NCBI GenBank assembly: GCA_965218585.1
Contig: CBDCLE010000003.1
Span: 64,001 to 128,000, forward strand
Length of the DNA: 64,000 nucleotides
From: Terriglobia bacterium
GTDB taxonomy: Bacteria; Acidobacteriota; Terriglobia; 20CM-2-55-15
Reading direction: 5' to 3'
Below the pieces are notes generated by a model. That model made no database searches. It had not been told where the DNA came from and saw nothing but the letters and a program-made list of their open reading frames with translations. Every line of letters starts with the position of its first letter. The stretch's first letter is position 1. Positions 8,210-63,511 of the stretch are shown piece after piece. A program made the translations under genes and the position numbers.

Positions 8210-8625
8210 CCGGAATCGAAATGAAACTCGACGTGAGCGTTAATGAAAATCTCTGGGTGAACCTGGCCCTGGATGCCGTCGACACCGAACTCAAAACCAC
8301 TGCCGAAACACTGCCTCGGATTCCGCCGCTACGAGGAACGATCGGCCTCGATATCCGATACGGCGGCTTGAGCGTAAAGCCGGAGCTCGTGCTGGCGGAC
8401 CGGAGAGACGACGTCTTCAGCACCGAAACGGAAACGGCCGGTTACGGATTGGTCAACCTGACAGCCTCGTATACTGTCCCGCAACCCCACTTCTCACACC
8501 ACCTGTCCCTCAGCTGGTTCAACGCGACAAACACGCTGTACCGCAACCACCTCAGCTTCATCAAAGATCTCGCGCCGGAGATTGGTAGTGGCGTGCGGAT
8601 GTCCTATTCCGTGAAGTTCTTCTAA
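8210..8625 (+). pseudogene. 3' fragment of a TonB-dependent receptor, truncated by IS110
   Basis: LPRIPPLR, ETETAGYGLVNL, NATNTLYRNH and a C-terminal Phe are typical TBDR barrel end; the frame begins at the IS end. Confidence 0.85.
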
Positions 8626-8638
8626 GAATGGAAGGTGG

Positions 8639-10372
8639 CTAAGACTCGAACGCTTCGGCGATGGCCTCGCGTAGCCGGTCCAAGCCCTCGGTCAGGTTTC
8701 CTTCGATGTGCGCACGTAGCACCCGACGGCCGCGTTCGGAGAGCACGGTCATGTCGCCGCTGGCCTGGGCTGCCTTGACGACGCCGAAAGAATAGCTGCG
8801 TCCGGGAACGGGAAGGTCGGTTCCGTCATCACAGGTGATCTGGAGAAAGACGCCTGTAGGGGGACCGCCCTTGTGCAACTGGCCTGTCGAGTGGAGAAAG
8901 CGTGGGCCAAACCCTAAGCAGGTCGCCACGTGTTTCCGGTCTCTGACAAGGTCCCGCATCTGGGAAAGGACAGCCTCGTGGTCCCGGCTCATTTCGACGT
9001 AGGCCTGGATGCAGAAGTAATCGCCTTCGGCGAGAGTTCCCAGATGGCTGCCCAAGTGGCGGGCCAGGGAAGGTTCGGTAGTCGTCCGAACCGGACCGAG
9101 AACCGGACCTGTATCGGCACTTGAAAATAGTTTGATACCGGCCGCCTCGAAAATGGGGACGGCCCCAGCAAGTTCACCGCTCTCTTCAAATTCGCTGGTC
9201 ACGCGTCGGGCAGCCACTTTGCTCGCATCGACATCGGGCTGAACGAACGGATTGAGGCGAAGCAACGAACCCGCAACAGCGGTGGCCATTTCCCAACGGA
9301 AAAACTCCTGTCCGATCGAGTACACATCCTCAAGCTCGATGCGCACGACGGGCTGGCCTGCCTCTTCGAGAGGACCGATCGCCGCATCTTCGGCAGAGTT
9401 CTCGTCGGAACTGAGTTTCAAATAGACGAAGACACGGTCAGCCCCATAAACCTCGGGCGACCCCAATGTTTCCCCATCGACAGGAACGATGCCCTTCCCG
9501 TCTTGCCCTGTGGACTCCGCCACCAACTGTTCGAGCCAGGCACCCAGACCGGCAATTTTGCGGGAGGTAACGATCGTCATCTTGTCTCGACCCGCCCCAG
9601 CCAATCGACCCAGAGCGATGCCCAGGAGTACTCCGGGATTTTCGAGAGTGGAAACGTCGGGACCGCATCCCGAGACCATCTCGTCGGTGGCCGCGAGAAG
9701 TCGAGCAACATCGAGCCCCATCACCGCTGCAGGCACCATACCGAAATCAGACAGCGCGGAGAAACGGCCTCCGACATCAGCTTGACCCGCAAATACGCTT
9801 CGCAGATGGCGTTGGTTGGCAAGACTCTCAAGCCTCGAACCGGGGTCGGTAATAGCCACGAAACGCCGGCCGGCTTCAACAGGGCTGAGGATTTTCGCGA
9901 CGCGGTCGAAGAAATATTCAAAGAGTAGGGACGATTCCAGCGTTGTACCGGACTTGCTGGAAACGATGAAGAGTGTTCGCTCCAGTTCCACGGAACTTTC
10001 GGTGGCGCGAATCTGGGCCGGGTCCGTTGAGTCCAGGACGTGAAGCGCCGGAAAGGATGGATCGTTTTCGAAGGTCAATCGAAGCACTTCCGGACACAGG
10101 CTCGAACCTCCCATTCCAAGCAACAAGGCCTCGGTGAAGCCCTCCGCGCGGACATCCTCGGCAATCTGTAAGAAAGCGTTCCGTCTCTCGAGTTGGCTGG
10201 GGACGATGTCGAGCCAGCCCAGCCACCGATCCTCGTTCGATCCGGTCCACAGCGAGGCGTCGCGATTCCAGATCCGGCGAACGGTATCTTCTGTGGTCCA
10301 CTCCTGAAGCGTCGATTCCACAGCGCGGGTGACCTCGAAGGGCAGGCTGAGGGACTGAGGGTTTACTGCCAT
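8639..10372 (-). CDS. pgi: Glucose-6-phosphate isomerase (Tal/Pgi C-terminal type)
   Basis: LLGMGGSSL, LDSTDP, VSSKSGTTLE, VGGRFSALS, EQLVAESTG, QPDV, GPRFLHSTGQLHKGGP. Confidence 0.85.
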   Translation of the reverse strand: MAVNPQSLSLPFEVTRAVESTLQEWTTEDTVRRIWNRDASLWTGSNEDRWLGWLDIVPSQLERRNAFLQIAEDVRAEGFTEALLLGMGGSSLCPEVLRLTFENDPSFPALHVLDSTDPAQIRATESSVELERTLFIVSSKSGTTLESSLLFEYFFDRVAKILSPVEAGRRFVAITDPGSRLESLANQRHLRSVFAGQADVGGRFSALSDFGMVPAAVMGLDVARLLAATDEMVSGCGPDVSTLENPGVLLGIALGRLAGAGRDKMTIVTSRKIAGLGAWLEQLVAESTGQDGKGIVPVDGETLGSPEVYGADRVFVYLKLSSDENSAEDAAIGPLEEAGQPVVRIELEDVYSIGQEFFRWEMATAVAGSLLRLNPFVQPDVDASKVAARRVTSEFEESGELAGAVPIFEAAGIKLFSSADTGPVLGPVRTTTEPSLARHLGSHLGTLAEGDYFCIQAYVEMSRDHEAVLSQMRDLVRDRKHVATCLGFGPRFLHSTGQLHKGGPPTGVFLQITCDDGTDLPVPGRSYSFGVVKAAQASGDMTVLSERGRRVLRAHIEGNLTEGLDRLREAIAEAFES

Positions 10373-10524
10373 TGCTGGATCAGATCATATCAGCAGTAGC
10401 GAGTCGTCAACCCCGACCGAGGCACACTCCGGCCGATCGCTACCGACGTCGGCGTGAAGTTATTTAAATTGAATAGATAAGCACCCCCTCCATACGACGC
10501 GCATGCGTCGCTAAGGACAGGACG

Positions 10525-10725
10525 CTAGTTCTGCTGGGGCTGCGGCTGGTGTTGCCGCTTATGCTCCAACAGCAGATGCAGTCGCCTTCGGTGAGAGGGG
10601 TTTGCGTCCTCGAAATCGGCACCGCAAACGTTACATCGATACCAATGGATCCGGAAGGTCGTCGATTCGTTTTCGGCCAGCACGACTTCTTCGAGTTCTG
10701 GCCTCATGGCTTTCTGGGTACTCAT
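10525..10725 (-). CDS. Small C2H2 zinc-finger-like protein (~66 aa)
   Basis: YRCNVCGADF...LLEHKRQH; start MSTQK assumed. Confidence 0.45.
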   Translation of the reverse strand: MSTQKAMRPELEEVVLAENESTTFRIHWYRCNVCGADFEDANPSHRRRLHLLLEHKRQHQPQPQQN

Positions 10726-11438
10726 TAAATCAGGGGATCCGCCCTTACAAGGTGGGATCCTCAGCTCCTTCCAGCGACCTTTTCTCATCAGAGATGCTCA
10801 CTTAGACTAAAGAGCCCTCTGTTATGAGTTCATCCGTGTCGCCGATCCTCCATTCTAAGCCAACGCGGCCGTTTCACCAACGAGAATCAGACGATACCAT
10901 CGTCTTTCCTACTGGGTAGCCCGTGATTAGTGGTCCTGGCGGCGGCGGTTTTGGTCCCGGTAATCACTTGGAATTATAGCTATTTAGCTCCTCCGATACC
11001 GGGAAGACTTCCAGTTTTGGAAATCCACTACGTTCCTAAGTAACTCGAACGGTTCATCGCTCGATTTCAGGAGGCCCAGGAAAAGTTAGGGTACCACTCC
11101 TCGATCAGATCGCAGATGTCGCCAGCAGTCTCGGCGAAGTGGAAGGCGTCGACGTGGCTCGATCCGTTCGGCGGTGGCTGCTTCACTCCATCTGTATCGT
11201 CTGGCGGGGAGCGTCTCGGTCCCCATCTTAATATCCTCGCTCTGTGAGCCTTTAACCGGCGATCTCGTCAGAAACGCACTCTATCTTAACAATCCAACGC
11301 TCAATGGAGCCGCCCGAAGGGATGCGCTACATTTGCGTGTGTTAGAATGGCCCCTGCAGACACGGAAAAGCCAACACGCCCGGCCCGAGATCCCTTAAAC
11401 GGAACCGTTGCCTCACCATGGACTGATCCCGAGCCGCG

Positions 11439-11453
11439 TGGCACCGTTCTCGC
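11439..11453 (+). promoter_or_regulatory. Possible sigma54 promoter upstream of the KamA-like gene
   Basis: TGGCACCGTTCTCGC, GG-N10-GC spacing. Confidence 0.4.
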
Positions 11454-11598
11454 TAGTGTCCGAACGACGCTCAGCGCCCGGCCAACCTTTAGCCCGGAAT
11501 CGACTGAGCGAAAAAGCGCTGATAAATAATAACTTACGGGTTTAACAGTGGGTACTGTCGATCCAACGGAATGTTTTTTTCAACTTGGGGGGGAGCTC

Positions 11599-12990
11599 AT
11601 GAACAAACCGCTGGCTGAGCCGAGCCGATATCTTGCCTACACTGACAAGAATATCGACACGATCCCGCAATTCAAGGCCCTGACCTCCGAGCAGCGCACA
11701 GCTATCCGAACGGTTTCCCGAGTACTCCCGTTCCGTGTAAACAATTACGTTATTAATGAGTTGATCGATTGGGATGACATACCTCGCGACCCGATATTTC
11801 AGCTGACCTTTCCTCAGGAAGGCATGCTGACACCGGAGGACTTCGACTGCATACGCAGCCTGGTGGAAGAGGAGACGCCGGAAGAAAGGGTCTGGGAAGC
11901 TGTGCACAAGATCCGACTCAGGCTCAATCCGCACCCGGCGGGCCAGATGGACCTCAACGTCCCAGTGCTTGACGGCGAACCGCAAGCAGGAATGCAACAC
12001 AAGTATCGCGAAACGGTTCTGTTCTTCCCCAGTCAGGGTCAGACCTGCCACGCCTACTGTACCTATTGTTTCCGCTGGGCCCAGTTTGTCGGAATGGATG
12101 AATTCAAGTTCAGCAACAACGAGGCTGCTTCGCTGGTGCGCTATCTGGAACAACACTCCGAGGTTCGGGATGTATTGATCACCGGTGGCGATCCAATGAT
12201 CATGCGGACGAGCGTTCTGGAAAGCTACATCGAACCACTCCTCAAGATTGAGTCGCTCCGCAGTATTCGGATCGGCACAAAGGCTCTGTCATGGTGGCCG
12301 TATCGCTTCGTTACCGAGAACGACGCCGACGGTCTGCTCAAACTTTTCGAAAAGGTCGTCAAATCGGGCAAGCACCTTGCGTTGATGGCTCATTACAGTC
12401 ACCCGCGCGAAATGTCGACACCAGTTTCAGACCTCGCCATCGGGAGAATTCAAAAGACGGGAGCGACGATCCGTTCTCAAGCCCCCCTCATCCGCAACGT
12501 CAATGATTACTCCGATGTATGGGCTGCCATGTGGCAGAAGCAGGTGGATCTGGGCGTGATTCCTTACTACATGTTTGTAGAGCGCGATACAGGACCGAAA
12601 CAATACTTCGATGTCCCGCTTCACCGTGCGCTGGACATATTCGCCAGGGGAATTCGTCAGGTGTCGGGGCTGGGACGGACGGTTCGCGGCCCATCAATGT
12701 CGTGTACGCCAGGCAAGGTACTTGTCGACGGAGTTGCCGAGATCGATGGAGAAAAGGTCTTCGTTTTGAAGTTCTTACAGGGAAGGGATCCCAACTGGAC
12801 GAACCGGGTGTTTTTCGCCCACTACGACGAAGCGGCGTCATGGATCGACGACCTGAAGCCTGCTTTCTCTGAACAGTTCTTTTTCGCCGATCAGCTCCCC
12901 GCAAATCGGCGCTGGAAAAACTTCACCGTGTATTCCGGGGCCCGTTCGAGAGCCGCGAAACACGGCGGGAATCGGAGATCCTTTACTTAG
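11599..12990 (+). CDS. KamA-family radical SAM protein (lysine 2,3-aminomutase-like)
   Basis: HKYRETVL, CHAYCTYCFRW (CxxxCxxC), VLITGGDP, IRIGTK, PYYMF, PGK; GGGAG RBS before ATG 11599. Confidence 0.92.
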   Translation: MNKPLAEPSRYLAYTDKNIDTIPQFKALTSEQRTAIRTVSRVLPFRVNNYVINELIDWDDIPRDPIFQLTFPQEGMLTPEDFDCIRSLVEEETPEERVWEAVHKIRLRLNPHPAGQMDLNVPVLDGEPQAGMQHKYRETVLFFPSQGQTCHAYCTYCFRWAQFVGMDEFKFSNNEAASLVRYLEQHSEVRDVLITGGDPMIMRTSVLESYIEPLLKIESLRSIRIGTKALSWWPYRFVTENDADGLLKLFEKVVKSGKHLALMAHYSHPREMSTPVSDLAIGRIQKTGATIRSQAPLIRNVNDYSDVWAAMWQKQVDLGVIPYYMFVERDTGPKQYFDVPLHRALDIFARGIRQVSGLGRTVRGPSMSCTPGKVLVDGVAEIDGEKVFVLKFLQGRDPNWTNRVFFAHYDEAASWIDDLKPAFSEQFFFADQLPANRRWKNFTVYSGARSRAAKHGGNRRSFT

Positions 12991-13009
12991 CCGACGATCC
13001 GCAGGAAAT

Positions 13010-13043
13010 AAAAAAAGGGCGGCCCGTTGGCCGCCCCTTTTTT
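13010..13043. terminator. Bidirectional Rho-independent terminator
   Basis: A7-GGGCGGCC-CGTT-GGCCGCCC-CT6 between convergent genes. Confidence 0.9.
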
Positions 13044-13062
13044 CTGCTGGCTCTCCTCTGCC

Positions 13063-13392
13063 TCAAGCCGCGTAACGATCTAACAGCGAGGCAATGCTCT
13101 GTTTCGGTTGGGCGCCCACCAGGCGTTCCTTCTCCTCTCCATCCTTGAAGAGAATCAGCGTGGGTATCGCACGAACTCCATAGCGCGCCGCTGCTTCAGG
13201 ATTCTCGTCGACATTCAATTTCGCGATGCCGGCGCGACTGGCGAACTCCTCGCCCAACTCCTCCAGGCTCGGGGCCAGCGCCCGGCAAGGCCCGCACCAC
13301 TCGGCCCAGAAATCTACGAGCAGTGGCTCGGTGGATTGAACAATACTGTCTTCCAGGTCGCTGTCCGTCAGCTGTTTTAATCGATCACTCAT
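13063..13392 (-). CDS. trxA: Thioredoxin
   Basis: VDFWAEWCGPC, IPTL. Confidence 0.95.
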   Translation of the reverse strand: MSDRLKQLTDSDLEDSIVQSTEPLLVDFWAEWCGPCRALAPSLEELGEEFASRAGIAKLNVDENPEAAARYGVRAIPTLILFKDGEEKERLVGAQPKQSIASLLDRYAA

Positions 13393-13428
13393 AATCTTGA
13401 CCTCCTTTAACCCTGTGCTTCAGGCTTT

Positions 13429-14004
13429 TCATCTGATTTCGAGTACGCGTTTCATTTCGCTCGCAACCGCGTCCAGAGGCTCCCTCGAGCGGTACGCCCG
13501 GCTGAGCACCAGAGCACCTTCAATCATCGTCAGTACAGTCAGAGCCCGCCTTCCGGCATCCTTTGCGAGATGGCCTTCTGCGACCAGACGCTGGGTAAAC
13601 AGCTCACTCCAGGTCTCGAGGGCTTGGCAGCAGGTCCTCTGCAACGGCTCTGAAGTGGCCGCCGTTTCAAGGACAACGGTCGCGATCGGACAGCCTTCGC
13701 TGAAATTCGACTCCTCCAGCTGATCACGGGCCGTTCCAATCAGCGTCACCAGGGCTTCGACGGCTGTCGACGTTTGCTTGAAAGCCCTCTGGATCACCTT
13801 GACCTGGGCGTCACATGCATACCCGATCGCCGCCACGGCGAGCTGCTCCTTCCCTCCCGGGAAGTGGAAATAGAGCGAGCCCCTGGGAGCTCCACTCTCC
13901 TCAATAATCTGCTTCAATCCTGTGCCGCTGTAGCCCTGTCTCTGTAGCAGTTCTGCAGTCTTTAGAATGATGCGTTCTTTGCCGTTGGATGCCCTTGCCG
14001 TCAT
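13429..14004 (-). CDS. TetR/AcrR-family regulator (LmrA/YxaF-like)
   Basis: GYSGTGLKQI..SGAPRGSLYFHFPGGKEQL; GCPIA. Confidence 0.93.
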   Translation of the reverse strand: MTARASNGKERIILKTAELLQRQGYSGTGLKQIIEESGAPRGSLYFHFPGGKEQLAVAAIGYACDAQVKVIQRAFKQTSTAVEALVTLIGTARDQLEESNFSEGCPIATVVLETAATSEPLQRTCCQALETWSELFTQRLVAEGHLAKDAGRRALTVLTMIEGALVLSRAYRSREPLDAVASEMKRVLEIR

Positions 14005-14025
14005 TGATCCCTCACAACAAGAGCT

Positions 14026-14054
14026 ACTATACCGATCGGTCTATATATTGTCAA
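14026..14054 (-). promoter_or_regulatory. sigma70 promoter overlapped by a palindromic TetR-type operator
   Basis: TTGACA-N17-TATAGT; near-perfect palindrome TATACCGATCGGTCTATA (14028-14045) in the spacer and -10. Confidence 0.8.
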
Positions 14055-14095
14055 CTCGCCATTTCTGACCGAAGAGGGGCGAGGAAAGAGAATGC

Positions 14096-14110
14096 TGGCA
14101 CGCCGATTGC
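14096..14110 (+). promoter_or_regulatory. sigma54 promoter of the PAS-GGDEF pair
   Basis: TGGCACGCCGATTGC matches TGGCACG-N4-TTGC. Confidence 0.75.
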
Positions 14111-14186
14111 CCATGTATAGGGACTGAACGTCCCCATTTTTGGGGCAGCCCTTTTGAATTCAAGGGTTTGAATAGAGGTATCGACG

Positions 14187-15539
14187 ATGGATAAGAGCCA
14201 GAACCCCGGCGCAGGTGTCGGATTCTTGTCAGATTCCGGTCTCTCGAATTTCCTGGATAACCTTCCAGGTATGGCCTACCGGTGCGCGTGGGACGGTGAC
14301 TGGGCAATGGAGTTCGTCAGTAGTGGAGGTCTTCAACTCACTGGGCATGACCCGGAGGACCTCGTTCGGAATTCCGCAGTCTCATGGAGTGGACTGATCC
14401 ATTCCGATGATCTGGCAAAGGTCACGAAAAGGGTCCGCCGGGCCGTCAAGGACCGCAAACCTTTTCAGGTCGAATATCGCCTGCACACCAGCGGCGGGAT
14501 GAAATGGGTCCTCGAGGAAGGACGCGTGGTGTCGGAACCCAACGACTAACCATACTCCATCGAGGGTTACATCGTCGACATCTCGGAACAGAAAGCACAC
14601 GAAGCCGACCTCACGTACCAACAGGGTCAGACCCTTCTCGCGATTGAAAAGGCCCGGGACGCGTTCCTTGCAGTCGACTCTGAAGGCAAGATCCAGGATT
14701 GGAATCGCCAGTCAGAGCAGACTTTCGGTTGGACGCGCGAGGAAGTTCTGGGGCGGGGAGTGGCCGACACTATCGTGCCGCCGGAGCGGCGGGACGAATA
14801 CCTTGAAAGCTTCAGAAGCTTCATGGAAACCCAGGTAGGCCAGGTTACCTTTCAGAGGCCGAACCTGACCGCCCGCAGGCGCAATGGTGAAGAGTTTCCG
14901 ATAGAGCTCACGATCTGGCCCAGCGACTCCTCTAGCGGACAACTATTCAATAGCTACGTCCACGACTTAACCGAACATCACGCTTTGGAGGGTCAGTTGG
15001 CCAAGGCTGAGGACTCCCTCGAGCGTCTGATGCGAGAGGATTCCCTCACCGGCCTACCCAATCGCAAGGCTCTCGAAGGCGACTTGACACGCTCCATGTC
15101 GTTCGCGCGGAGATGGAAGCAGCCGCTGTCACTGATCATGGCAAATCTCGATACGCTGAAGAGTGTTAACGATGAACTTGGCCGATCCAAGGGGGACGCT
15201 CTCCTTGTGACGTTCGCCGATGCACTGCAGGCTTCGTCCCGTCTCGAAGATTTGACGGCACGGCTTGAAGGTTCAAAGTTCGCCCTCCTGTTGCCCAATA
15301 CCGATCTGGCCAACGCCCGCGTCGTTGCCGATCGCTTGCAGAAGAAACTGCGGGAAGAGGAAATGCCCTCCCAGACGACTATTTCAGCGACGGTGGGAAT
15401 AGCCGAGTTCGATGCCCAGGACACGATCGACACCTTTGTGAGCCGCGCGACGCAGGCGCTGAATCAAGCCAAAGACGGCGGAACAGACTCGGTGGAAGCG
15501 CCCGAAGCGGGGATCGAACAGGTCGGGGAACCCGGATAG
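14187..15539 (+). pseudogene. PAS-PAS-degenerate GGDEF protein interrupted by in-frame TAA (14547-14549)
   Basis: ORFs 14187-14549 and 14760-15539 share a frame; past TAA reads PYSIEGYIVDISEQK... ; active site reads EGSKF. Confidence 0.85.
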
Positions 15540-15577
15540 GAACCTGGCGGTACCGAACGATTGGACACCACTGACTT

Positions 15578-16531
15578 ATGGGAAACGGTTTAACACTGGC
15601 GACGAACCAGACCACTCGCACGAACGGCTTCGATATCACGGAGCTCGTGCAGAACCTTCCTGGTGTCGCTTACAGATGTCGATGGACCGACGCCTGGACC
15701 ATGGAGTTCGTCAGCAACGGGTGCCACCGTGTGACGGGGTACGAACCCGCCGAGATGCTTGGGACGTCCGCCCTGCCCTGGCAGCAGCTTCTCCACCCGG
15801 ACGATTTGCCTCAGATCGCTACCGAGATCACGCTCGCGGCCGAGCAGCGCGAGTCTTTCCAAGTGGCTTATCGCATCTTCACGAAAGAGGGTGCGGAACG
15901 CTGGTTGATGGAAGAAGGCCGTGTCGTCTCGGAGCCGGACGAAGACTGGGTGCGTTTGGAGGGATTCATCTCCGACATCACGTCGCGGAAACAAACCGAG
16001 ATGTCACTTCGGGAAGCCAACGAAACCATTGGTCGCCTGATTCGAGAGGATCCGCTGACCGGGTTGGCCAACAGAAGGGCTCTCGAGGAAAACATGGCAC
16101 GCGCGATATCGTTCGCCCACAGGTGGAAGCACCCGCTCTCGATGATCATGGCGGATATCGACTATTTCAAAACCGTCAACGATCGCTACGGTCATCTGAC
16201 CGGCGACCAGGTCTTGGTTTCGTTCTCTCAATTGCTGAAAACCTCGTCCCGCGTTGAGGACATCGTGGCGCGTTTCGGCGGAGAGGAGTTCATCCTGCTC
16301 ATACCGAACACCGGCCTCGATCAGGCCACACAATTGGCCGAGCGACTCCGAGCCGACACCGAGGAAGCGACCATGCCGATCCCGACGAATATCACTGCAA
16401 GTTTCGGGGTCACACGACTGTTAGCCCAGGACACACAGGAAAGCCTGATCGCCCGGGCCGACCGGGCGCTCTACGGCGCCAAGGACGCAGGCCGGAATCG
16501 TGTTATAACGTTAAAAGACGAGCCGGCTTAG
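15578..16531 (+). CDS. PAS-GGDEF diguanylate cyclase
   Basis: DPLTGLANRR, DIDYFKTVNDRYGH..GD, ARFGGEEF, AKDAGRN. Confidence 0.95.
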   Translation: MGNGLTLATNQTTRTNGFDITELVQNLPGVAYRCRWTDAWTMEFVSNGCHRVTGYEPAEMLGTSALPWQQLLHPDDLPQIATEITLAAEQRESFQVAYRIFTKEGAERWLMEEGRVVSEPDEDWVRLEGFISDITSRKQTEMSLREANETIGRLIREDPLTGLANRRALEENMARAISFAHRWKHPLSMIMADIDYFKTVNDRYGHLTGDQVLVSFSQLLKTSSRVEDIVARFGGEEFILLIPNTGLDQATQLAERLRADTEEATMPIPTNITASFGVTRLLAQDTQESLIARADRALYGAKDAGRNRVITLKDEPA

Positions 16532-16543
16532 CCAATCTCTAAA

Positions 16544-17878
16544 CTACCTCCCCGACCGGATCAAGACCACCAGGCCAAGAACGCTAGCGATTACTGAAGC
16601 CCCGAAGATACCTATTTTCATCATGGCCACCCGGGCCGGTTCCTGGAATGCGAGCCCTCCGATGAAGAGAGACATCGTAAAGCCGATTCCTGCCAGACAG
16701 CTGACCCCATAGACATGAATCCAGCGAACGTTGGAAGGTAACTGTGCCAGGCCCAGACGAACGGCGATCCACGTAAAAAGGGTGACGCCGACCTGTTTAC
16801 CGACGACCAACCCAAGCACAATCCCCAGCGTCATCGGATGACCGATATTTGAAACGGCATCGAGGTCTAAGACGACGCCGGCGTTTGCCAGCGCGAATAT
16901 CGGCAGGATCACGACGCTCACCCAGGGGTGGAGAGCCGTCTCCAGGCGCTGCAGAGGTGTGAGCGAATAGTCGGTTACCATGTCGAGATCCAAGAGTGCG
17001 TCGTGCCGCGTACGGTTAGCCAGAACATGGTGCTCGTGGGGGCCGGCCTGGTCGAACCGGTCGATCATCGCGCGGCTTCGGGAGACAAACTTCCCGGGAT
17101 CCAGACGGATGTTTGCCGGAATCAGCATCGCCATCAACACGCCGGCAACCGTGGGGTGAACTCCTGAGAATAGAAACGCCGACCAGACGCCTCCGACACC
17201 GAAAATGCCATAGACGAGAGGGTTTCTGACGCCGAGCCGATTGAGCAGGGCTACAAACGCAAAGACCCCCGCACCCACGCCGAGGCTGAGATAGGAAATC
17301 TCGGAGGTATAAAAGAGCGCGATCGCGATGACGGCACCCAGGTCATCCGCGATTGCCAGCGATGCCAGGAAAATCTTCAAGGCCGAAGGAACGCGATCTC
17401 CCAGGAGATGAAGAATCCCCATCGAAAAAGCAATGTCGGTCGCGATCGGGATGCCCCACCCCACCGCTTCGGGCGTACCGGCGTTGAAAGCGGCATAGAT
17501 CAAGGCTGGCACGACCATGCCACCGGCAGCAGCGACCAGTGGCAGCGCCGCCAGGCGCGGCGACGACAGTTCTCCGGCCAGCAACTCCCGTTTAATCTCC
17601 AGACCAACGACAAAGAAGAAAATGGCCATCAACCCGTCATTGATCCAGAGCAGCAGCGACTCGCTGACCTCGAAACTGCCCAACTGCAGGGATAAATGCG
17701 TCTCCCAGAGCGCAGTGTAGAGGTCTGTCCAGGGAGAATTCGCCCAGACAAGAGCAACCGCTGCCGAGAGGATCAACAGGATGCCGGAAGAGACTTCAGC
17801 CCGGATGAACATCCGAAAAGGCAGGAGTAGCTTCTCGATCGGGGGGTTTTCTTTGATAAAGAAACTGTCTCGTTTCAT
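16544..17878 (-). CDS. nhaA: Na+/H+ antiporter NhaA
   Basis: WINDGLMAIFF.VVGLEIKRE, GWGIPIATDIAF, LAIADDLGA, GIGFTMSLFI. Confidence 0.96.
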   Translation of the reverse strand: MKRDSFFIKENPPIEKLLLPFRMFIRAEVSSGILLILSAAVALVWANSPWTDLYTALWETHLSLQLGSFEVSESLLLWINDGLMAIFFFVVGLEIKRELLAGELSSPRLAALPLVAAAGGMVVPALIYAAFNAGTPEAVGWGIPIATDIAFSMGILHLLGDRVPSALKIFLASLAIADDLGAVIAIALFYTSEISYLSLGVGAGVFAFVALLNRLGVRNPLVYGIFGVGGVWSAFLFSGVHPTVAGVLMAMLIPANIRLDPGKFVSRSRAMIDRFDQAGPHEHHVLANRTRHDALLDLDMVTDYSLTPLQRLETALHPWVSVVILPIFALANAGVVLDLDAVSNIGHPMTLGIVLGLVVGKQVGVTLFTWIAVRLGLAQLPSNVRWIHVYGVSCLAGIGFTMSLFIGGLAFQEPARVAMMKIGIFGASVIASVLGLVVLIRSGR

Positions 17879-18114
17879 GTCGCTTGGCCAATCGCTTTAG
17901 GACTATAGCTTATCCGGATGCTTCGGCGCATACCCGTTTACCGTCTCACGTTTCGCTTTTTTCCTACTGCGGCGAGAAAGTCCCACCAAATGCACCCCAA
18001 AAAAGCAGGATCGACTACATTTTTTGCTAAAGTTTCTTCAAGAATTGTCGACGGGGTCGGGCTGGGAACCGTAAGCCGATGAAACATATAGAACGGCCAC
18101 TGACGGCTAAACTT

Positions 18115-18130
18115 TGGCAAGCTCATTGCA
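18115..18130 (+). promoter_or_regulatory. sigma54 promoter driving an intergenic RNA
   Basis: TGGCAAGCTCATTGCA, GG-N10-GC; no credible CDS downstream. Confidence 0.7.
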
Positions 18131-18140
18131 ATATATAAAA

Positions 18141-18351
18141 TCGTAACGCGGCAGATTATTAGCCCGTTCGGACCTAGTAGCTTTTAAGGCAAGTCCGGCC
18201 AGGGACGGTAGTCGCAAACGATGAAGTCAGGATGAGCTGCGGGGGCGGAGCCCACGTCGAAAGGATTTCGGAGAGCAGCGACGAGACGTGGGCGATGAAG
18301 GACACTAGGACCAAAACCTGACGACGAACGGATTCGCCATCAGGTTTTTTT
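18141..18351 (+). ncRNA. Candidate CsrB/RsmZ-like multi-GGA sRNA
   Basis: Nine GGA motifs, five in hairpin loops; ends in terminator AAAACCTGA...TCAGGTTTTTTT (18313-18351). Confidence 0.6.
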
Positions 18352-18357
18352 AGTTCT

Positions 18358-20933: not shown

Positions 20934-20943
20934 GGAATCACTT

Positions 20944-52365: not shown

Positions 52366-52381
52366 AGTAGACGGCTAGCGC

Positions 52382-53146: not shown

Positions 53147-53152
53147 TGGAAC

Positions 53153-54298: not shown

Positions 54299-54452
54299 AG
54301 CGCCTCTTTCAATTCGTTCAATGTACGCCTTATCTCACAGTGTGTTCGGTCGAGGCCCAGTTTAGGGCTCTCCGCGTTCTATGGGGTGCTAAAAGTCTCA
54401 GCCTGAATTCAGGGACGGAAATCGAGTCAGCCACAGGCCCCGGGAGGGATGC

Positions 54453-55460
54453 CTATTCAGCGATTTGCAGGACCTTCTCCTCGCCCTGGATCGGGAGGGA
54501 TGCCGTCATTTCCTGGGGCGCCCGCCAGTGGTCGATCACAGACACTTTCTGAACACAACCGATCGTGCATCGAGGCGCACATGGCTTCTTTGTGTAGAAC
54601 TCCCGATGAACATCATCAGCCGTGTAGTCAGCAAGCGGAATTCCTGGAAAACCACGCTGCTGTGAGCAGTAGTGGACGAGGCCGTCCTCGCAGATATAAA
54701 GAAACCGTGCGCCGGCGCGGCAATGCCAGTCGTTCGGCTTCCCCTTGGCAAGATTCTCCTGGAACCAGTTCAGGCGAGTGTAGCTCTGGCTGCCGTAACT
54801 GCGAATCTTTCGATAGACACGCTCTTCTCTACGGTCGAGAGGTTTCACCTGCCCTGAGCCGTCATGAATAATTCCTAACGACGTCGAGAATCCCAGATGC
54901 CGCGCCAACTCCGTAATGTGAAGAGCGTCTTCCGGCGTCTTGATACCGCCGCCGATCACGGAGTTGATGTTCACATCGAAATCGGAGTACTCGGCGAGAT
55001 ACTGGAGTTTCAGTTCCAGAACTTTCAGGCTCTTCATCGAGACTTCATCGGGTTCGATGTTGTCGATGCTGATCTGTAGATATTCCAGACCTGCATCATT
55101 GAGTGCTTTGATCTTGTCTGGCACCAGAAGATAACCGTTGGTGATCAATCCGGCAATCATGTCCCGGCCGCGAATCCTCGCGATGATCTTCTCGATCTCC
55201 GGATGCATCAGGGGTTCACCGCCGCTGATCGTAATGATAGACGTCCCCAGTTCCGCTAGCTTGTCGAGTCGACGGTACATCTCTTCGGTAGGAACCGGAG
55301 GCGAATGATCGTCGTATTCATTGCAATAGGCACATGCCAGATTACACCGCCGCATCGGAATGATGTGAGCCAGGAGAGGATGGCGTGTGGAGGCCAATCC
55401 ACGTGCAATCATCTGCGTTTCACGCCACCTGAGCCGGAGCCTGTTTTTCCTCTTTATCAT
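54453..55460 (-). CDS. Radical SAM protein with C-terminal Cys cluster (possibly hopanoid-associated)
   Basis: [34 protein letters not shown]. Confidence 0.85.
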
Positions 55461-55560
55461 CAAAACACCCGGGAAAATCCAATCGCGTGAAGTCTTCCGT
55501 AAGATATCACATCGATACACTTGGCTAGTGCCCGGGGACAGCGTAGATAATAGAACTCTC

Positions 55561-57702
55561 ATGGAATTCCGATTCCAATGGAAATTTCGTCTGGACGTCG
55601 AACCCGACCGACTATGGCGATACATTGCTGACACAGGTAGTTTGAACGAAGCTGCCGGACTGCCTGAATGGAAACTTCAATACATCCCGGAAGACGATGG
55701 CGGTTCCCGACAAACAGCAGAAACGCGCTATATGGGGTGGCGCATCCGCTGGGACGAACACCCCTTCGAATGGGTGGAAGGCAGAAGCTACGAGGTCCTT
55801 CGCGTCTATCACAATGGGCCTGTGCGTTCGTTCCGGTTGGCCGTCCAGCTTTCACCTCTGGACGGCGGATCGCTTCTGGTAGAGGACATGGTTGTCGAAC
55901 CTCGGTGGCTTGTTCTGGCGCCGGCGATCTACTGGGATCTCGGGTACCGCTCTCGCAAGCGTTTTGGACGTGTCTATAGGAAGATCGAAAACTTTCTGAA
56001 GGGTCAGACTGCAGCGCCCTTCCCTGTGCGGCATCCGAATACGGTCGCAGATGATCGCCTGCACCGACTCGAGAAACGTCTTAATGGTGTCGAGGGCGGA
56101 GAGTATCTCCCCAACCTTCTGAACGCTCTCAAAACATATTCCGATCAAGAACTGCACCGGCTGCGCGCTTTTGCCTTCGCCGACGAATGGGGTGCCGACC
56201 GGGTGCAGACCCTGAAACTGTTTCTGCACGCGGGGGTGGCAGGGCTACTGGATGTCTCCTGGGACGTCATATGTCCGAGTTGCCGTGGAGCAAAGATGCG
56301 AGTCGGGAAACTTCGGGATCTTCGGACCGAAGCGCATTGCGACGCATGCAACATCCGCTACTCCACCGATTTCGCAGAGTCGGTAGAGATCACTTTTCTT
56401 CCAAGTTCAGGAATCCGGAAAGTCGAGATGAACGACTATTGCAGCGGTGGTCCAATGAGGGCCCCCCACGTCGTCGTACAACAGCAGATTCCGCCTGGAG
56501 AAACCCGAACGATACCGCTCAGACTCAAGCCGTGGCAGTACAGGCTACGTTCCCTGAAACTCCCAAGCCACAGCATGCTCAAGGTCGGAAGCGAACTCGG
56601 GGGAAATGAACTGAAAGCAACGCTGGGAGTAGCGGGAATAGCACCAGAGGAAACTACTCTTGGCGAGGACTTCACGTTGGCGATCCGGAACGGAACGGAA
56701 AAGACCCACACAGTGATGCTCGAAAGGACCTCGGAACAGGAACAGGCAACCTCTGCAGCATTCGTGACCACAATGCCGGAGTTCCGCAACCTGTTCTCGT
56801 CTGAGGTCCTGGCTCCTGACACGCAGGTCCGTGCCGGAACGATCTGCCTGATGTTTACGGATCTGAGGGGATCGACTTCCATGTATGAGGAAATCGGCGA
56901 CACCGCGGCGTACGCTCGCGTACGCGAACACTTTGAAATATTGCGGGACGTGGTCGGGAGCTACGAGGGAACATTCGTCAAAACGATCGGGGATGCTCTC
57001 ATGGCCGCTTTTAGCGATCCGGCCAAAGGACTGGGTGCGGCGTTTGACATGCACGAACGGATGCGACTAGAAAACAAGACACACAGTCCGGCCCTAACGC
57101 TCAAGATCGGTCTCCACCAGGGTCCCTGTTTCGCAGTAAATACGAATGAGAACCTGGACTATTTCGGAACAACTGTCAACATAGCGGCACGCGTTCAAAA
57201 GGAGAGCCAGGGAGGAGACGTTGTGGTGACCGACGAACTTTTCCACGACCACGCAGCGCAAGAACTATTGCTGGAGCGCGTCCATGCTTACCAGCCGCTG
57301 GAGATTGAAATTCGCGGCCTTCGAGGAACCCCTTGGGCCGATGGGGATTGGGGTCGATCTCTTTGTCACTCGTCGGTCACGATGAGAAAGCATCGATCCT
57401 TCCTCGCTCCTCAACCTCGACCGCAAGACCCATCGGCGCCACTGGCGATACCTCTGTTACAGGCCACTAGTCTTCCAGAAGACTGCCTTCGGTATCGTAG
57501 ATCTCTACCGGTCCATACTGCTCCAGTATCGACTGGATCTGGCTCGCATCCCCGACGACGACGATCTGCATCGCTTCGGGATCCAGATACTTCTCTGCCA
57601 TACTCTGAACCGTTTCGGAAGTCACAGCCATCACCCGTTCCGGATACCTATCCCAGTAGTCCCGTGCAAAGCCATAGATCTCGCGCGTCGTCGAATAACT
57701 GA
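55561..57702 (+). CDS. SRPBCC-like/DUF5939/adenylate-guanylate cyclase protein; C-terminus probably run-on beyond ~57330
   Basis: [39 protein letters not shown]. The tail after IRGLRG reads through a repeat and overlaps the opposite gene. Confidence 0.85.
57337..57437. repeat. ~100-bp palindromic (MITE/REP-like) element
   Basis: 21-bp arms with 18/21 match: GCCGATGGGGATTGGGGTCGA / TCGACCGCAAGACCCATCGGC. Confidence 0.7.
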
Positions 57703-58939
57703 GGAGGCTCGTGGGGCGTTCCAGCGAGAGGGCAAAACGGGCCACGAGGGACCGCTTTACCTCCTCGAGTTCGACCTCGGGCACAGCTTGGTCCTTCATT
57801 CGTTCCAGTTCATAGAAAAACTCAGTCATCGCGCCTTCTGTGACTTCGGTGCGCACATCGGCCGATGCCCGCCAGGCTCCCGGATACTTCAGAGCCGAGA
57901 AGAAACTGTAGGCTCCATAGGTATAGCCCTTTTCCTCACGGAGGTTGATGAACAGGCGAGAAGAGGGACCTCCACCCAACACCTGATTCATGACCGTCAG
58001 TGGAATGTAGTCAGGATGCCGGCGGTCCAGTGCCAGAGTCCCCATATAGATCGTCGCCTGGGCGGAGTCCGGTCGATCAACGAGAAAGATCCGACCAAGG
58101 GCCGGCGTTTCCGGATCCGGGGGCAACTCTACAACGTAGTCGGTCCGTTCCCAGTCCTCCAGCCACTCGTTCAAATCCGAGAAAATGTCCTGGGCGTCAA
58201 CGTCTCCGGCAATACTGAGAACGGAGTTCTGAGGTGCATAGCGCTCCCGATGCCAGCGAGCGAGAATCTCGGTCGACATAGCATCAAGGGAATCCTCTGT
58301 GGCCGATCGCGTCGCTGCGGGATGGTCGCCGAACACGGCCGCACTGAATCGCTCGTTTGCCAGAAATCCGGAGCGGGTACGCTGCTGACGAAGCCCTGCT
58401 ATCTCTTCCTCGCGGATCCGCTCAAATTCCGGTTCAGGAAAGGTGGGATTCAGCAAAACGTCGCGCATGATCTCGAACCAATCTTCCATATTGCGGCTTA
58501 AGCCCGACGCACTCACACTGGTCGCCTCGGAACCGAAGTTCGACGAACTGTTAAGGTTCGCTCCGAGCCGGGCAACCTCTTCAAGGATTTCACCGTTGGA
58601 TCGCGTTGTGGTACCTTCGCGCAACATCCTGGCTGTCATGTCCGCTACACCGGCAAGTTCGCTGGATTCATAGAGGGGGCCTGCCCCGCCGATGGTAAGC
58701 TGCATGGTCACAATCGGCGAGCGGTCGTCTTCGAGAACAAGCACTCGTAACCCGTTGTCCAGCGTGGTCTCGACCGCGCGCGGAAGCGTCACCTGGAGTA
58801 CATCGTTGGAAACAGGTGCCAGATTCTTGCGGACGATAGAGGATGAATCAGGAGCCGCAATGTCCTGGGCACCGGCAACGGTATGCACGCCGCAGATTAA
58901 CGCAAGAACGAGAGAAAGTTTTCCAATCTGAGGCCTCAC
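57467..58939 (-). CDS. M16 peptidase, non-catalytic subunit
   Basis: LDNGLRV, no HxxEH, SRLFINLREEKGYTYG. Confidence 0.9.
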   Translation of the reverse strand: MRPQIGKLSLVLALICGVHTVAGAQDIAAPDSSSIVRKNLAPVSNDVLQVTLPRAVETTLDNGLRVLVLEDDRSPIVTMQLTIGGAGPLYESSELAGVADMTARMLREGTTTRSNGEILEEVARLGANLNSSSNFGSEATSVSASGLSRNMEDWFEIMRDVLLNPTFPEPEFERIREEEIAGLRQQRTRSGFLANERFSAAVFGDHPAATRSATEDSLDAMSTEILARWHRERYAPQNSVLSIAGDVDAQDIFSDLNEWLEDWERTDYVVELPPDPETPALGRIFLVDRPDSAQATIYMGTLALDRRHPDYIPLTVMNQVLGGGPSSRLFINLREEKGYTYGAYSFFSALKYPGAWRASADVRTEVTEGAMTEFFYELERMKDQAVPEVELEEVKRSLVARFALSLERPTSLLSYSTTREIYGFARDYWDRYPERVMAVTSETVQSMAEKYLDPEAMQIVVVGDASQIQSILEQYGPVEIYDTEGSLLED

Positions 58940-60294
58940 TGTCCACCTCCGCGTGCCGGCCGCTGCTCCCTAGTCTGCGGCAGAGTCGTTACGACTGTCC
59001 GGTTGGTTTCTCTTAGATAAATGTCCGCCCCGGATCGAATCTGCTGCTTCGAAACGCGATCGTACTTCTCCTGGAAGGTGTTGATCAGATCAGGATCGTT
59101 ATAGAAGACGGTGTTCTCGGCCAACGCATTGGCCCTGGCGCGCGTGGACTGCAAGCGCTGAGCGTTCTGCCGTTCGATCTGAGTGATGACCTTTTCCATC
59201 TCCCAATCCTCTACAAGGTCTGTCTTCAGCGTTTCGATTTCCCGATAGATAGCAGCTTCAAGGTCTTCGAGTTCGACACCTGGCCTCGGCGTCGCAGAAA
59301 TCGAAAACAAGGATGGACCGCGGCGTTCACCGAGGCCTGCGCGAACGTTGAGCGCCAACTGATCTTCCTGGACGAGTCTCTGGTACAGACGTCCTGACCG
59401 ACCGCCTCCCAGGATGTCTCCCAACACCGCCAGGATGTACCAGTCACCCGTATTCCCTTCTGGAGCCTTGAAGGCGATATCCAGCCGAGGCAGCCGGGCA
59501 AACTGGTCGGCGATAGTGACACGCTTTTCCTCTGTCTGCTCTGGCTCGACGATAAACATTTCAGGTGGTGTGAGCTGATCTGGGATGTCACCGAAGTATT
59601 GCTCGATCTTTGCCAGTGCTTCCTCTGCGTCGAAATCTCCGACGAGGGCCAGAACAGCATTGTTGGGAGCGTAGTACTGCCTGAAGAAGTCCTCTACGTC
59701 GACTAGCGTCGCGGCATCCAGGTCGTCCATGGAACCAATCGTGGAATGGCTGTAAGCAAACGATTCATACGCTGTCTCGTTAACTGTTAAAAACGTTCGA
59801 CCGTACGGGGCATTGTCAATTCCAAGCCGGCGCTCCTCCTTCACGGTCTGCCGCTGGTTCTCAAGATTCGCCTCGGAAATGTCGAGGGATCTCATCCGGT
59901 CGGCCTCCAGGAACAGGCCCAGGTCGAGTTGGTTCGCGGGCAGCGTTTCGAAATAATTCGTTCGGTCCGAGCTGGTCGTACCGTTCATGCTCCCGCCGTT
60001 GTTCTGGATCAAAATAAAATGCTCACCCTTGCCGACGTTCTCCGAGCCCTGGAACATCATGTGTTCAAACAGATGCGCAAATCCCGTCTTCCCCTGGCGT
60101 TCGTTGCGGGACCCCACATCGTAGACAACACAGATGGAGTAGGTCGGAGCGGAATGATCCTCCGAAAGGATCACCCTGAGCCCGTTATCCAAACGGAAGA
60201 TTTCGAAAGGAACCTCGGACTGGGCATCCGCAGGCCCGGCCCAAAGAATCAATAGAAGCGCTGTCAGCGAGGAGACAAACGTCTTTCTCAGCAT
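58936..60294 (-). CDS. M16 peptidase, catalytic subunit
   Basis: GFAHLFEHMMF, NGTT..DRTNY, EADRM, YAPNNA. Confidence 0.94.
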   Translation of the reverse strand: MLRKTFVSSLTALLLILWAGPADAQSEVPFEIFRLDNGLRVILSEDHSAPTYSICVVYDVGSRNERQGKTGFAHLFEHMMFQGSENVGKGEHFILIQNNGGSMNGTTSSDRTNYFETLPANQLDLGLFLEADRMRSLDISEANLENQRQTVKEERRLGIDNAPYGRTFLTVNETAYESFAYSHSTIGSMDDLDAATLVDVEDFFRQYYAPNNAVLALVGDFDAEEALAKIEQYFGDIPDQLTPPEMFIVEPEQTEEKRVTIADQFARLPRLDIAFKAPEGNTGDWYILAVLGDILGGGRSGRLYQRLVQEDQLALNVRAGLGERRGPSLFSISATPRPGVELEDLEAAIYREIETLKTDLVEDWEMEKVITQIERQNAQRLQSTRARANALAENTVFYNDPDLINTFQEKYDRVSKQQIRSGADIYLRETNRTVVTTLPQTREQRPARGGGQ

Positions 60295-60393
60295 ACTTTC
60301 ACCTCAGAAGTGACGGGAATTCGCCCTAAGGATGTAGTCTATGCGACCTGCTTCATCCGTTCCACCCATTCTGCACGCTTCCTTGAGGTGGCG

Positions 60394-61617
60394 TTACTGG
60401 GGTAAGGTGCGGCCCTGCGCAAAATCAGTCTGACCCTGAAAAACGCGCAGTCCGAATTCAGGCATGATCGAAAAGATGTGATCAAAGATATCGGACTGGA
60501 TGCCTTCGTACTCTGCCCAGGCGGTCACGTTCGTAAAGACGTACAACTCGACGGGCAGACCTTCTGACGTGGGCGAGAGCTGGCGCACGATCAGTGTCAT
60601 GTTCTGGTGAATCTTAGGGTGCTGCCGCAAATAAGCAGCTAGGTAGGCACGCAATGTTCCGACATTGGTCAACCGACGCGCATTCACGATCAGATTGGGA
60701 TCATCCTGAAAGGTTTTATTGAAGTCACGGACCTCTTGCCTCTTCTCACGCACATAGTCCTGCAGAATGGCAAAGTTTTCGATCCTGTCCAGATCTGCTT
60801 CGGTCAGAAAGTGGATCGAATTCATGTCAACGAAGAAGGAGCGCTTGATCCGGCGGCCACCGGACTCCTGCATGCCGCGCCAGTTCTTGAAAGGCTGTTC
60901 GATCAGCTTGTGCGTTGGAACGGCGGTGATCGTCTTATCGAAGTTCTGAATCTTGACGGTATGAAGAGTCAACTCGATCACGTCACCGTCCGCACCATAC
61001 TGCGGCATTTCGATCCAATCTCCGACCCGCACCATGTCGTAGCTGGCCATCTGAAGGCTGGCGACGAATGAGAGGATCGTGTCCCTGAAAACCAGCAGGA
61101 GGACGGCGGTGATCGCCCCGATCCCACTCAACAGGAGCAGAGGGTCTCGCCCCGTCAGAGTGGCAATGAAAAGGACGCCACCGATGACGTAGATGGCAAT
61201 CTTGCTCACCTGAACATAGGCTTCAATCGGCCGGCCCTCTGCGATCGAACTAGAGGAGTAGGTCCTGCCGACAGCGGTCAGAAAGGCCGCCAACGCTGAG
61301 ACACCAACCAGAACCATTGCGGCAGCGGCCGCGCGTTCGACCAGTGTGTCAACCCCTTGGGGTACATCGGGTATGAACCCGATGCCGAAGTAAACGACTA
61401 AAGCTGGCGCCAGGTGCGCCACGCGCCCGAATACATTGAATTCGAGAAGAATGTCGTCGAACTGGAAGGCAGTCTCTTGGGCAACACGACGGACAGTCGT
61501 CAGAATGATGCTTTTTGTGATTCGGTCCGCCAGATAGGCGAACAGCATCACGACTACAATTCCAATCGCGGTTGCTAGGATCGGGTATTGATTCAGAAAC
61601 TCGAGCGCACTCGACAT
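60394..61617 (-). CDS. MscS-family mechanosensitive channel (YbdG-like)
   Basis: RVGDWIEMPQYGADGDV, NWRGMQESGGRRIKRS, YEGIQSDIFDH. Confidence 0.92.
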   Translation of the reverse strand: MSSALEFLNQYPILATAIGIVVVMLFAYLADRITKSIILTTVRRVAQETAFQFDDILLEFNVFGRVAHLAPALVVYFGIGFIPDVPQGVDTLVERAAAAAMVLVGVSALAAFLTAVGRTYSSSSIAEGRPIEAYVQVSKIAIYVIGGVLFIATLTGRDPLLLLSGIGAITAVLLLVFRDTILSFVASLQMASYDMVRVGDWIEMPQYGADGDVIELTLHTVKIQNFDKTITAVPTHKLIEQPFKNWRGMQESGGRRIKRSFFVDMNSIHFLTEADLDRIENFAILQDYVREKRQEVRDFNKTFQDDPNLIVNARRLTNVGTLRAYLAAYLRQHPKIHQNMTLIVRQLSPTSEGLPVELYVFTNVTAWAEYEGIQSDIFDHIFSIMPEFGLRVFQGQTDFAQGRTLPQ

Positions 61618-61757
61618 GTCGTCATCTTACACGTAAGGAAGTGGCGAGTTAAGCGTGATAATCGCCATTCGTTCTGATGAAACATTTCGGCCAAACCGGA
61701 ATTGTTTCAGGGGGAAGGAGGAAATGACTGATAGGCGGCGATAATCGAGACCAACTA

Positions 61758-63458
61758 TCAGCGTGCCATTCTCGATCGATTATCGTCCTGTTTCTTCAGT
61801 TGCGATTTGAGCTTGTACATGCGTCGATCTGCCACAGCAGTAACATCGGTCAGCGTGCTACCGTCTTCCGGTGCCGAGGCAACACCACAGCTGACTCCGA
61901 AGCCCAGTTCACGATACGTTTCAAAGCTAGCATCCCCATCGACCAACCGCTGAAACTCCCCTGCGGATGGAAACACGGATCTTAGGTGAGAGGCTAGGCG
62001 CACCAGAACGTCATCGCCGGCCTGATGTCCGAACGTATCGTTGACAGCCTTGAAGGAGTCCAGGTCCAACAACACAATTGAGAAAGATTCCTCCGAGGAA
62101 TCCTTAAACGACCTCTCCAGCGCTCGCCGATTCGCCAGTCCCGTCAGTCGATCAGAAATCGCATCCTGATGTGCGACTTCGATCATACGGGCCTTGTGAA
62201 GACTGCCCGCGATTCGGTCGGCCGTCGCCGTGGCATAGCGAACCTCATCATCGCCGAATTCGGCATCGCGATATAGCGACAGGACTGCCAGTACCCGCCC
62301 GTCGAACATCACAGGAGCGGCCACGACTTTCAATCCTTCGAATCGCCCGGAATCCACAGCAAGGTTCACGCAGGGGCTCTGTTCAGCAGCGACCCAACCG
62401 GCGACTCCTGCTCCGAAGGGGAGTACGCCATGGGGTTCTTCGTTCCTGGAATACGAAACCAATTGGTCGCTGTTGACCGACCAGAGAACCACCGTACTCG
62501 ATTCAACATGTTCTTCAAGCATGCCGGCGACTACGGAAGCAATGTCTTCAACAGAGGACAATCCGCTGATTGCTTCGGAAAGCGTATCCAGGAAATGTAC
62601 TTCCGACGCAGCCTTTTCTATGTCGGAATAGGCGCTCGGTCTGTATTCTTCCGGCCTCCCCTCCGAACCCTCGGTGACATCAAGATAGACGTGTTTCCAA
62701 TGAGCCACGATGTCTGGATCAAAAAGGGTACCGGATCCCTTTTCGAGCATCGTCATGGCTTGTTCTGCCGTCACCGACAGGTTCCCATGACGAGACATGA
62801 AGCTTTCGTAGGAATCAACGATCGCGATCACCCGGGCTGCGATGGGAATTGAGGTGCCTCGGAGTCCTTCCGGGTAACCCGAGCCACCGTATCGTTCGTG
62901 ATGGTACCGAACCGCGTCTGATCCCGGATATGAAAACTTGATGTTGGATATGATCTCTCCCCCGATTTCGGGATGGAGGCGCATCTTAGTCATTTCCTCA
63001 GGTGTCAGAGATCCTCTCTTCCTGAGGATGTAGTCCGGTACGGCCAGTTTTCCAATGTTGTGCAGGAGGGCGGCGGCGGCAATCCCATCCACTTCATCAT
63101 CTTCAAGATTCATTTCACGGACCAGTGCTCTCGCGTAGGCCTGAACTCGAACAACGTGGCCCTGGTTCTGATCCTTGGCATCGATGGCCAGGACGAGCGT
63201 TTCCAAGGTTGATTCGTGTAGCTCGGCCATGACTTCGGCATGCCGCTTCTTGCTTTCAAGCTGTTCGGTATAGGCTCGGTGAGCCCGGAAGTTCATGTAG
63301 AGAAGAGGCAGCAAGGGAACCAACGCACCCAAGGCTGCGTAGGCCAACGTGACATCGTAGACGAGTGCGCCTACACCCACGGGGAATCCCATCGCCACGC
63401 AGAGCAGAACCACTGACCGGAGCAGGGACAGGCTGGTATATGAGGAGTCTTTTCTCAA
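61758..63458 (-). CDS. Membrane HD-GYP/GAF/GGDEF protein with degenerate catalytic sites
   Basis: LHNIGK (HD to HN), HHERYGGSGYP; DRLTGLANRR and DLDSFKAVNDTFGH..GD present, but the GGDEF segment is missing. Confidence 0.85.
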   Translation of the reverse strand: MRKDSSYTSLSLLRSVVLLCVAMGFPVGVGALVYDVTLAYAALGALVPLLPLLYMNFRAHRAYTEQLESKKRHAEVMAELHESTLETLVLAIDAKDQNQGHVVRVQAYARALVREMNLEDDEVDGIAAAALLHNIGKLAVPDYILRKRGSLTPEEMTKMRLHPEIGGEIISNIKFSYPGSDAVRYHHERYGGSGYPEGLRGTSIPIAARVIAIVDSYESFMSRHGNLSVTAEQAMTMLEKGSGTLFDPDIVAHWKHVYLDVTEGSEGRPEEYRPSAYSDIEKAASEVHFLDTLSEAISGLSSVEDIASVVAGMLEEHVESSTVVLWSVNSDQLVSYSRNEEPHGVLPFGAGVAGWVAAEQSPCVNLAVDSGRFEGLKVVAAPVMFDGRVLAVLSLYRDAEFGDDEVRYATATADRIAGSLHKARMIEVAHQDAISDRLTGLANRRALERSFKDSSEESFSIVLLDLDSFKAVNDTFGHQAGDDVLVRLASHLRSVFPSAGEFQRLVDGDASFETYRELGFGVSCGVASAPEDGSTLTDVTAVADRRMYKLKSQLKKQDDNRSRMAR

Positions 63459-63484
63459 GGCGGACTAGTCTCCCATCATTTAAC

Positions 63485-63511
63485 TTATCGGCCGGAGACA
63501 CATCATCCTTA
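63485..63511 (-). promoter_or_regulatory. sigma28-type promoter of the HD-GYP/GGDEF gene
   Basis: TAAG-N15-GCCGATAA; the first T coincides with the IS110 core. Confidence 0.75.

Follow-up and report, generated by a model that had tools for sequence, protein, structure and literature searches.

Beyond the individual cases described below, inversions mediated by insertion sequences (IS) through homologous recombination between inverted copies are known. In Wolbachia wRi, the GR2 rearrangement is described as more than 40 kb of DNA inverted between two copies of ISWpi7, a member of the IS110 family; a gene lies split at its ends (PMC5665950). Pairs of IS1106 in Neisseria have been connected with IS-mediated inversion between inverted copies (PMC3454330). 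In Pseudomonas putida, copies of the IS110-type element ISPpu10 bound large rearrangements, in this case amplifications, and the preprint states as open whether the element is a driver or a bystander (10.64898/2026.03.19.712850). A bridge-RNA layout with guides in the long right end has been described for the IS1111 group (PMC11208160). Here we analyse a stretch of 64,000 nucleotides from a Terriglobia bacterium (G000:C3:64001-128000, hereafter the window), in which a block of about 55 kb lies between two inverted copies of an IS110-family element, with a broken TonB-dependent receptor gene and two HD-GYP genes at its borders. Coordinates above 64000 run on in window numbering along the contig. 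The source genome, G000, consists of 26 contigs totalling 4.55 Mb with a completeness of 95%, and was compared with four congeners, G001, G002, G003 and G004. Major features of the locus are summarized in Table 1.

An earlier reading of the same DNA (the sequence-only reading) had proposed that the two HD-GYP genes were once divergent neighbours and that the intervening segment of about 55 kb had been flipped between the inverted IS110 copies. Both proposals hold up in the comparison. The HD-GYP genes are adjacent and divergent in all four congeners. In every one of the three congeners that have a receptor orthologue, the DNA matching position 65071 onward passes directly into the match to about 8206 onward. 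The gene order of G002 runs from 3803 to 6632, continues from 63432 down to 13063 and from 12980 down to 8206, and then proceeds from 65078 onward, with its own extra DNA interspersed, so that the interior is opposite relative to both outer flanks. GC skew inside the block measures -0.0225; the adjoining 55 kb to the right have +0.0335, and the stretch 3803-6649 has +0.054. Judged from HD-GYP adjacency, receptor continuity, the order in G002 and the skew, this assembly carries the block inverted with respect to the ancestral state.

As the sequence-only reading had noticed, the flanks of copy 1 do not match: one side carries a receptor 3' fragment, the opposite side the sigma28-like site of an HD-GYP gene followed by the gene itself. 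It had further predicted the 5' half of the receptor on the minus strand past copy 2, and a 608-codon part that joins in frame is present exactly there, carrying the CarboxypepD_reg and Plug domains and positions 43-311 of PF00593. When the two halves are joined via an AC core, they form a continuous frame of 747 amino acids, and alignments with all six homologues are free of gaps up to 20 columns from the junction. Each half is 79-85% identical to the orthologues of three congeners. Upstream of the receptor lies a small His-rich open reading frame ending in RGPPRA (L011:6952-7410).

Because IS110 elements make no target-site duplication, it is the split gene, together with the core and the half-sites of the target, that reveals the swap. 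The genome contains 16 full-length copies of the element, and end alignment gives an invariant sequence of 1,557 bp in 14 of them, with one base more or less in the other two. Copies 1 and 2 are in opposite orientation and identical across the 1,557 bp, the identity extending into 8 and 3 flanking bases. The transposase scores 63 bits against PF01548 and 37 bits against PF02371 (the DEDD RuvC-like and C-terminal Tnp domains). The ends of the element are unequal, with 386 bases to the right of the transposase gene and 109 to the left, and a search for sub-terminal repeats (7-17 bp by the IS1111 criterion) found no more than an imperfect repeat, offset by two bases.

Flank alignment places AC as the left core in all 16 copies, and the right core is AC in ten, AA in five and GC in one; in copy 1 both cores read GT on the plus strand of the window, the right one at 6648-6649 and the left one at 8205-8206. 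The sequence-only reading had joined the flanks through an AA core. This was wrong: the shared core is AC, and the AA join falls two bases short and destroys the receptor frame, which then continues for 11 codons past the junction compared with 139 through the AC core. Offsets of three bases in either direction also keep the frame, but zero offset combines a gap-free alignment with the core position of related elements. At the promoter side the two joins are not separated, both scoring 14 in a local comparison with G003.

The predicted guides lead to the same core. The 386-base right end carries two segments that match both halves of the target consensus from the 16 insertion sites. In related elements (68% identical), found in G001 and G002, the guide segments change along with the target flanks, a covariation that covers seven copies in G001 and eight of the nine copies with an intact right end in G002. 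These relatives have TC at the core position, both at the element's ends and in the predicted donor guide. Since guides covary with flanks and TC occupies the ends and the predicted donor guide of the relatives, the core here is assigned as AC. A -35-like and a -10-like hexamer at opposite ends of the element would lie 18 bases apart if it were circularised. A single-sequence fold of the right end is no better than those of shuffled sequences (z +1.85). The layout fits a bridge RNA of the IS1111 group, the RNA itself being predicted. The guide isoforms, AC here and TC in G001 and G002, make up a natural set of reprogrammed elements within one genus.

The other border of the block falls, in the ancestral order, between the HD-GYP genes. 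The small gene retains both its HD and GYP motifs and has orthologues in all four congeners (78-89% identical); a separate search for related loci with its protein gave distant family members only. The large gene is decaying, a point that the sequence-only reading had not made: its HD motif has become HN, and the GGDEF motif has been lost through an in-frame deletion near 61964. Its orthologue is intact in three of the four congeners and separately broken in G003. The sigma28 (FliA) consensus resembles TAAA-N15-GCCGATAA, and the genome encodes a FliA that scores above the TIGR02479 cut-off. Both of the intact back-to-back sigma28 promoters claimed by the sequence-only reading do exist as sites; genome-wide, TAAG-N15-GCCGATAA occurs four times among 128 GCCGATAA boxes, and two of the four sit here. 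The sigma28 label is by consensus only. The rebuilt region between the two genes can be aligned with all four congeners, and G003 shares both boxes in 71 bases as against 72 here. The -10-like box of the small gene is present in all four congeners with one base altered in three of them. Because the spacing and boxes of the congener promoter regions are looser, sigma28 control is a prediction. Two more TAA(A/G)-N15-GCCGATAA sites, at C3:142585 and C22:132102, may belong to the rest of the sigma28 regulon. In sequencing run X23, a contig with a 97%-identical variant of the large HD-GYP gene (L002:1003-1466) stops about 40 bases before copy 2 and may come from a co-occurring strain with a different allele at the copy 2 site.

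Table 1. Positions of the main features in window numbering, or by contig where a contig is given
Feature	Position	Strand	Basis or remark
Inverted unique block, 55,307 bp	8207..63513	.	Congener synteny; GC skew of opposite sign to near flanks
IS110-family copy 1	6650..8206	-	1,557 bp, left core 8205-8206 included; end alignment
IS110 copy 2	63514..65070 (C3 end 129070)	+	First 487 bases (63514..64000) inside the window
IS110 transposase/recombinase, 353 amino acids	7036..8097	-	PF01548 and PF02371 over cut-off
Right-hand core dinucleotide of copy 1	6648..6649	-	AC on transposase strand; outer breakpoint side
Two predicted target-guide segments, IS right end	6937-6945 and 6902-6908 (span 6902..6945)	-	Match 16-site target consensus
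TonB-dependent receptor 3' fragment, 139 codons	8207..8625	+	Pfam PF00593 positions 327-435
TonB-dependent receptor 5' part, 608 codons	C3:129072-130895, ~65072-66895	-	Directly past copy 2
Small HD-GYP gene, 197 amino acids	5961..6554	-	Pfam HD_5, E 1e-43; outside inversion
Predicted sigma28-type promoter, small HD-GYP gene	6607..6633	-	TAAG-N15-GCCGATAA
Large HD-GYP/GAF/GGDEF gene	61758..63458	-	Inside inversion; degenerate
Predicted sigma28-type promoter, large HD-GYP gene	63485..63511	-	TAAG-N15-GCCGATAA
Second swapped pair, flagellar cluster	C2:415456-417018 and C10:159506-161062		Mismatched flanks

We consider it probable that the inversion is real and that it arose from two separate insertions and a later crossover between the copies, probably through host recombination of the RecA type. 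One copy would have entered the receptor gene and another the space between the back-to-back promoters, both at guide-matching sites, after which a single crossover anywhere within the 1.56 kb of homology would flip the block. Both reconstructed empty sites agree with the 16-site target consensus, and the RecA of this genome is intact over all 262 profile positions.

Copies 1 and 2 are not the only pair of this kind. The flanks of the 16 copies show four to be swapped, these being the two pairs that were set apart; the other 12 were scored by their flanks. Six have flanks that are collinear in at least one congener, two of these coarsely; in two, an interrupted domain resumes in register past the element; and four are undecided (C1:69263, C2:282707, C5:2084 and C15:1141). 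The second swapped pair lies in a flagellar cluster. The copy at C2:415456 has mismatched flanks, and in G001, G002 and G003 one of these flanks meets the right flank of C10:159509 at a clean empty site. In the reciprocal product a flgD fragment is linked with the fliR side, with about 4.4 kb gone including fliP, a gene that was not found in this genome (95% complete). The flhA gene of the same cluster is also broken, by a frameshift near C2:413080. The simplest account would be a deletion between two direct copies together with an inversion involving a third copy. More than two copies would have had to recombine in such a history, a pattern expected of homologous recombination.

Several observations weigh against two independent insertions followed by a crossover. 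The structure of the ends is the same for homologous recombination and for a route coupled to the transposase, and no intermediate with both insertions in ancestral orientation was seen. The GC skew of the whole contig start to the left of the block is -0.011, resembling the interior, and this contig start is itself rearranged at about 3800. A search by kind of DNA listed 24 sequencing runs, no RNA run among them, of which 18 with a small share were excluded; the six used, from three studies, have shares of 0.42-0.99 and were available as contigs in every case. No contig of these six runs crosses an IS copy, and the orientation in cells was not observed. Both swapped pairs join internally identical copies, a status held by 29 of the 120 copy pairs, and the chance of identity in both is about 0.06. 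In the assembly, copies 1 and 2 also share an allele, 725T (window 7479 in copy 1), with the copy at C19:41686-43242, giving Cys207 in the transposase, where the other 13 copies encode Arg. Ordered as in the congeners, these three fall within some 95 kb of one another, since C19:41.7-76.8 kb is next to window position 3803 in G001, G002 and G004; by simulation, post hoc, such clustering has a chance of 0.001-0.003. The 725T allele is absent from the contigs of every run, all of which have C, and contigs drop minority alleles.

Identity within both pairs and the local cluster of 725T copies would fit a route in which the bridge-guided IS110 recombinase passed an end of a resident copy on to a target close by on that chromosome, with host replication or repair then yielding two copies and a flipped block in one event. 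This route demands that parent and daughter copies be identical, and single-ended reactions of IS110 elements, termed 'direct transfer' and 'half-match', are described in two preprints (10.1101/2025.10.25.684509, 10.64898/2026.08.31.748434). The reactions they report are top-strand transfers that preserve the donor and give simple insertions, and the first of them argues against cointegrate-type transposition (bioRxiv 10.1101/2025.10.25.684509). The canonical bridge inversion between donor and target would leave one IS and a hybrid empty site, going by the description in PMC11208160. Partners are equally left identical by local copying with ordinary recombination afterwards, or by gene conversion associated with the crossover, and the second pair needs at least three copies. 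A natural inversion made by the recombinase between two IS110 copies was not found in the literature searched, most subscription papers and preprint supplements being outside the search. We regard this one-event route as rather unlikely. Were it to apply, a prospect just as doubtful, the genome would hold two of its natural products and a locally spreading Cys207 lineage.

A different concern is that the insertions are real and their flanks were misjoined through identical repeats, the cells keeping the ancestral orientation. Synteny and GC skew would be the same for such a misjoin as for a recent inversion; copies 1 and 2 are identical across 1,557 bp plus the 8 and 3 flanking bases, so phasing needs reads that span them; and the other swapped pair is likewise between identical copies. 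From each of the four flanks, contigs of run X19 extend 22-27 letters into the IS, short of the 31 letters that the bridging rule asks for; they lend weak support to the junctions and say nothing on orientation. Among the X19 matches listed there is no empty-site joint in which the IS is skipped. The assembly itself resolves longer repeats: contigs enclose 159 of 162 repeat intervals of at least 1.6 kb (up to 3 kb), 41 of 52 contig ends consist of single-copy sequence, and individual IS copies bear their own variants. From this resolution of repeats the source assembly appears long-read-like, its read type not being on record. Repeats resolved to this length with copy-specific variants kept argue against a misjoin, as do the matching flanks in eight of the 12 copies outside the swapped pairs, four being undecided, and the loss of fliP that accompanies the second swap, which a misjoin alone would not produce (given a genome 95% complete). 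We therefore think a misassembly improbable.

If the probable crossover between the copies took place, what did it change? In its effect the flip is predicted to be nearly neutral. The breakpoint falls between the two -35-like boxes, and each predicted promoter thus stays with its own gene; with the promoters retained, the receptor already cut and the large HD-GYP gene decaying, little would be altered. Its sole effect would be that the receptor knock-out is no longer reversible by simple precise excision of the IS. The position of the breakpoints, within a receptor gene and a predicted two-way promoter region, and the inverted repeats, which permit reversal in principle, could suggest a reversible switch, in which both orientations are maintained for their effect on the receptor or on expression of the cyclic di-GMP (c-di-GMP) genes. 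Yet the receptor is interrupted by an IS in either orientation, and both predicted promoters are fully outside the IS and core and move with their own genes. The large HD-GYP protein has neither its HD nor its GGDEF motif, and the sigma28-associated flagellar cluster is without fliP and has a split flhA. A switch is accordingly the least plausible of these accounts and very unlikely.

Other rearrangements and repeats occur in the window and its genome. A second break in synteny lies at 1933-3803, where congeners link window position 3803 with C19:76835, and beside it is a DDE_5 transposase element (2048-3367) present in more than 20 copies. Within the block, a 1-kb gene at 53149-54226 is flipped in G001 relative to the source genome, G002 and G004, and an intergenic 33-bp inverted repeat at 18358-18443 is 91% complementary with a loop of 20 bases. 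An 870-bp repeat at the start of C15 (L052:56-925) matches more than 20 copies in G003 at 99-100% identity. As core genes are only about 75-80% identical, this repeat likely reflects a recent IS exchange between species.

The locus offers a worked case in which a split gene sets the ends of an IS to the base, and its 16 sites together with the related elements provide natural covariation of guide and target. If the recombinase did make the swap, the case would be relevant to the way IS110 elements move and to undesired rearrangements during bridge editing.

Among known systems, the GR2 rearrangement of Wolbachia wRi is a close precedent, with a pair of IS110-family copies, an inverted block and a split gene in both. 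The two differ in that the non-inverted state with one insertion is reported from other Wolbachia strains and was checked by polymerase chain reaction, whereas no intermediate was seen here, and in the sites themselves: here the split gene encodes a TonB receptor, and a predicted two-way promoter region is the second site. With the bridge systems of IS110 and IS1111 elements, as described in PMC11208160, our element shares a DEDD recombinase, a core dinucleotide and a long right end that bears the guides. Here, when oriented by the transposase gene, the guide order appears to read the opposite strand of the target, in contrast to that description, and a programmed bridge inversion uses one donor and one target, whereas the product here is two full elements. 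The ISPpu10 case concerns amplifications in laboratory evolution, as its preprint describes them, and ours an inversion. What the locus shares with IS-mediated inversion in general is homologous copies in opposite orientation, a reciprocal swap of flanks and RecA. It is likely a rearrangement of a familiar type, in a genome rich in IS copies with flagellar and c-di-GMP genes in decay.

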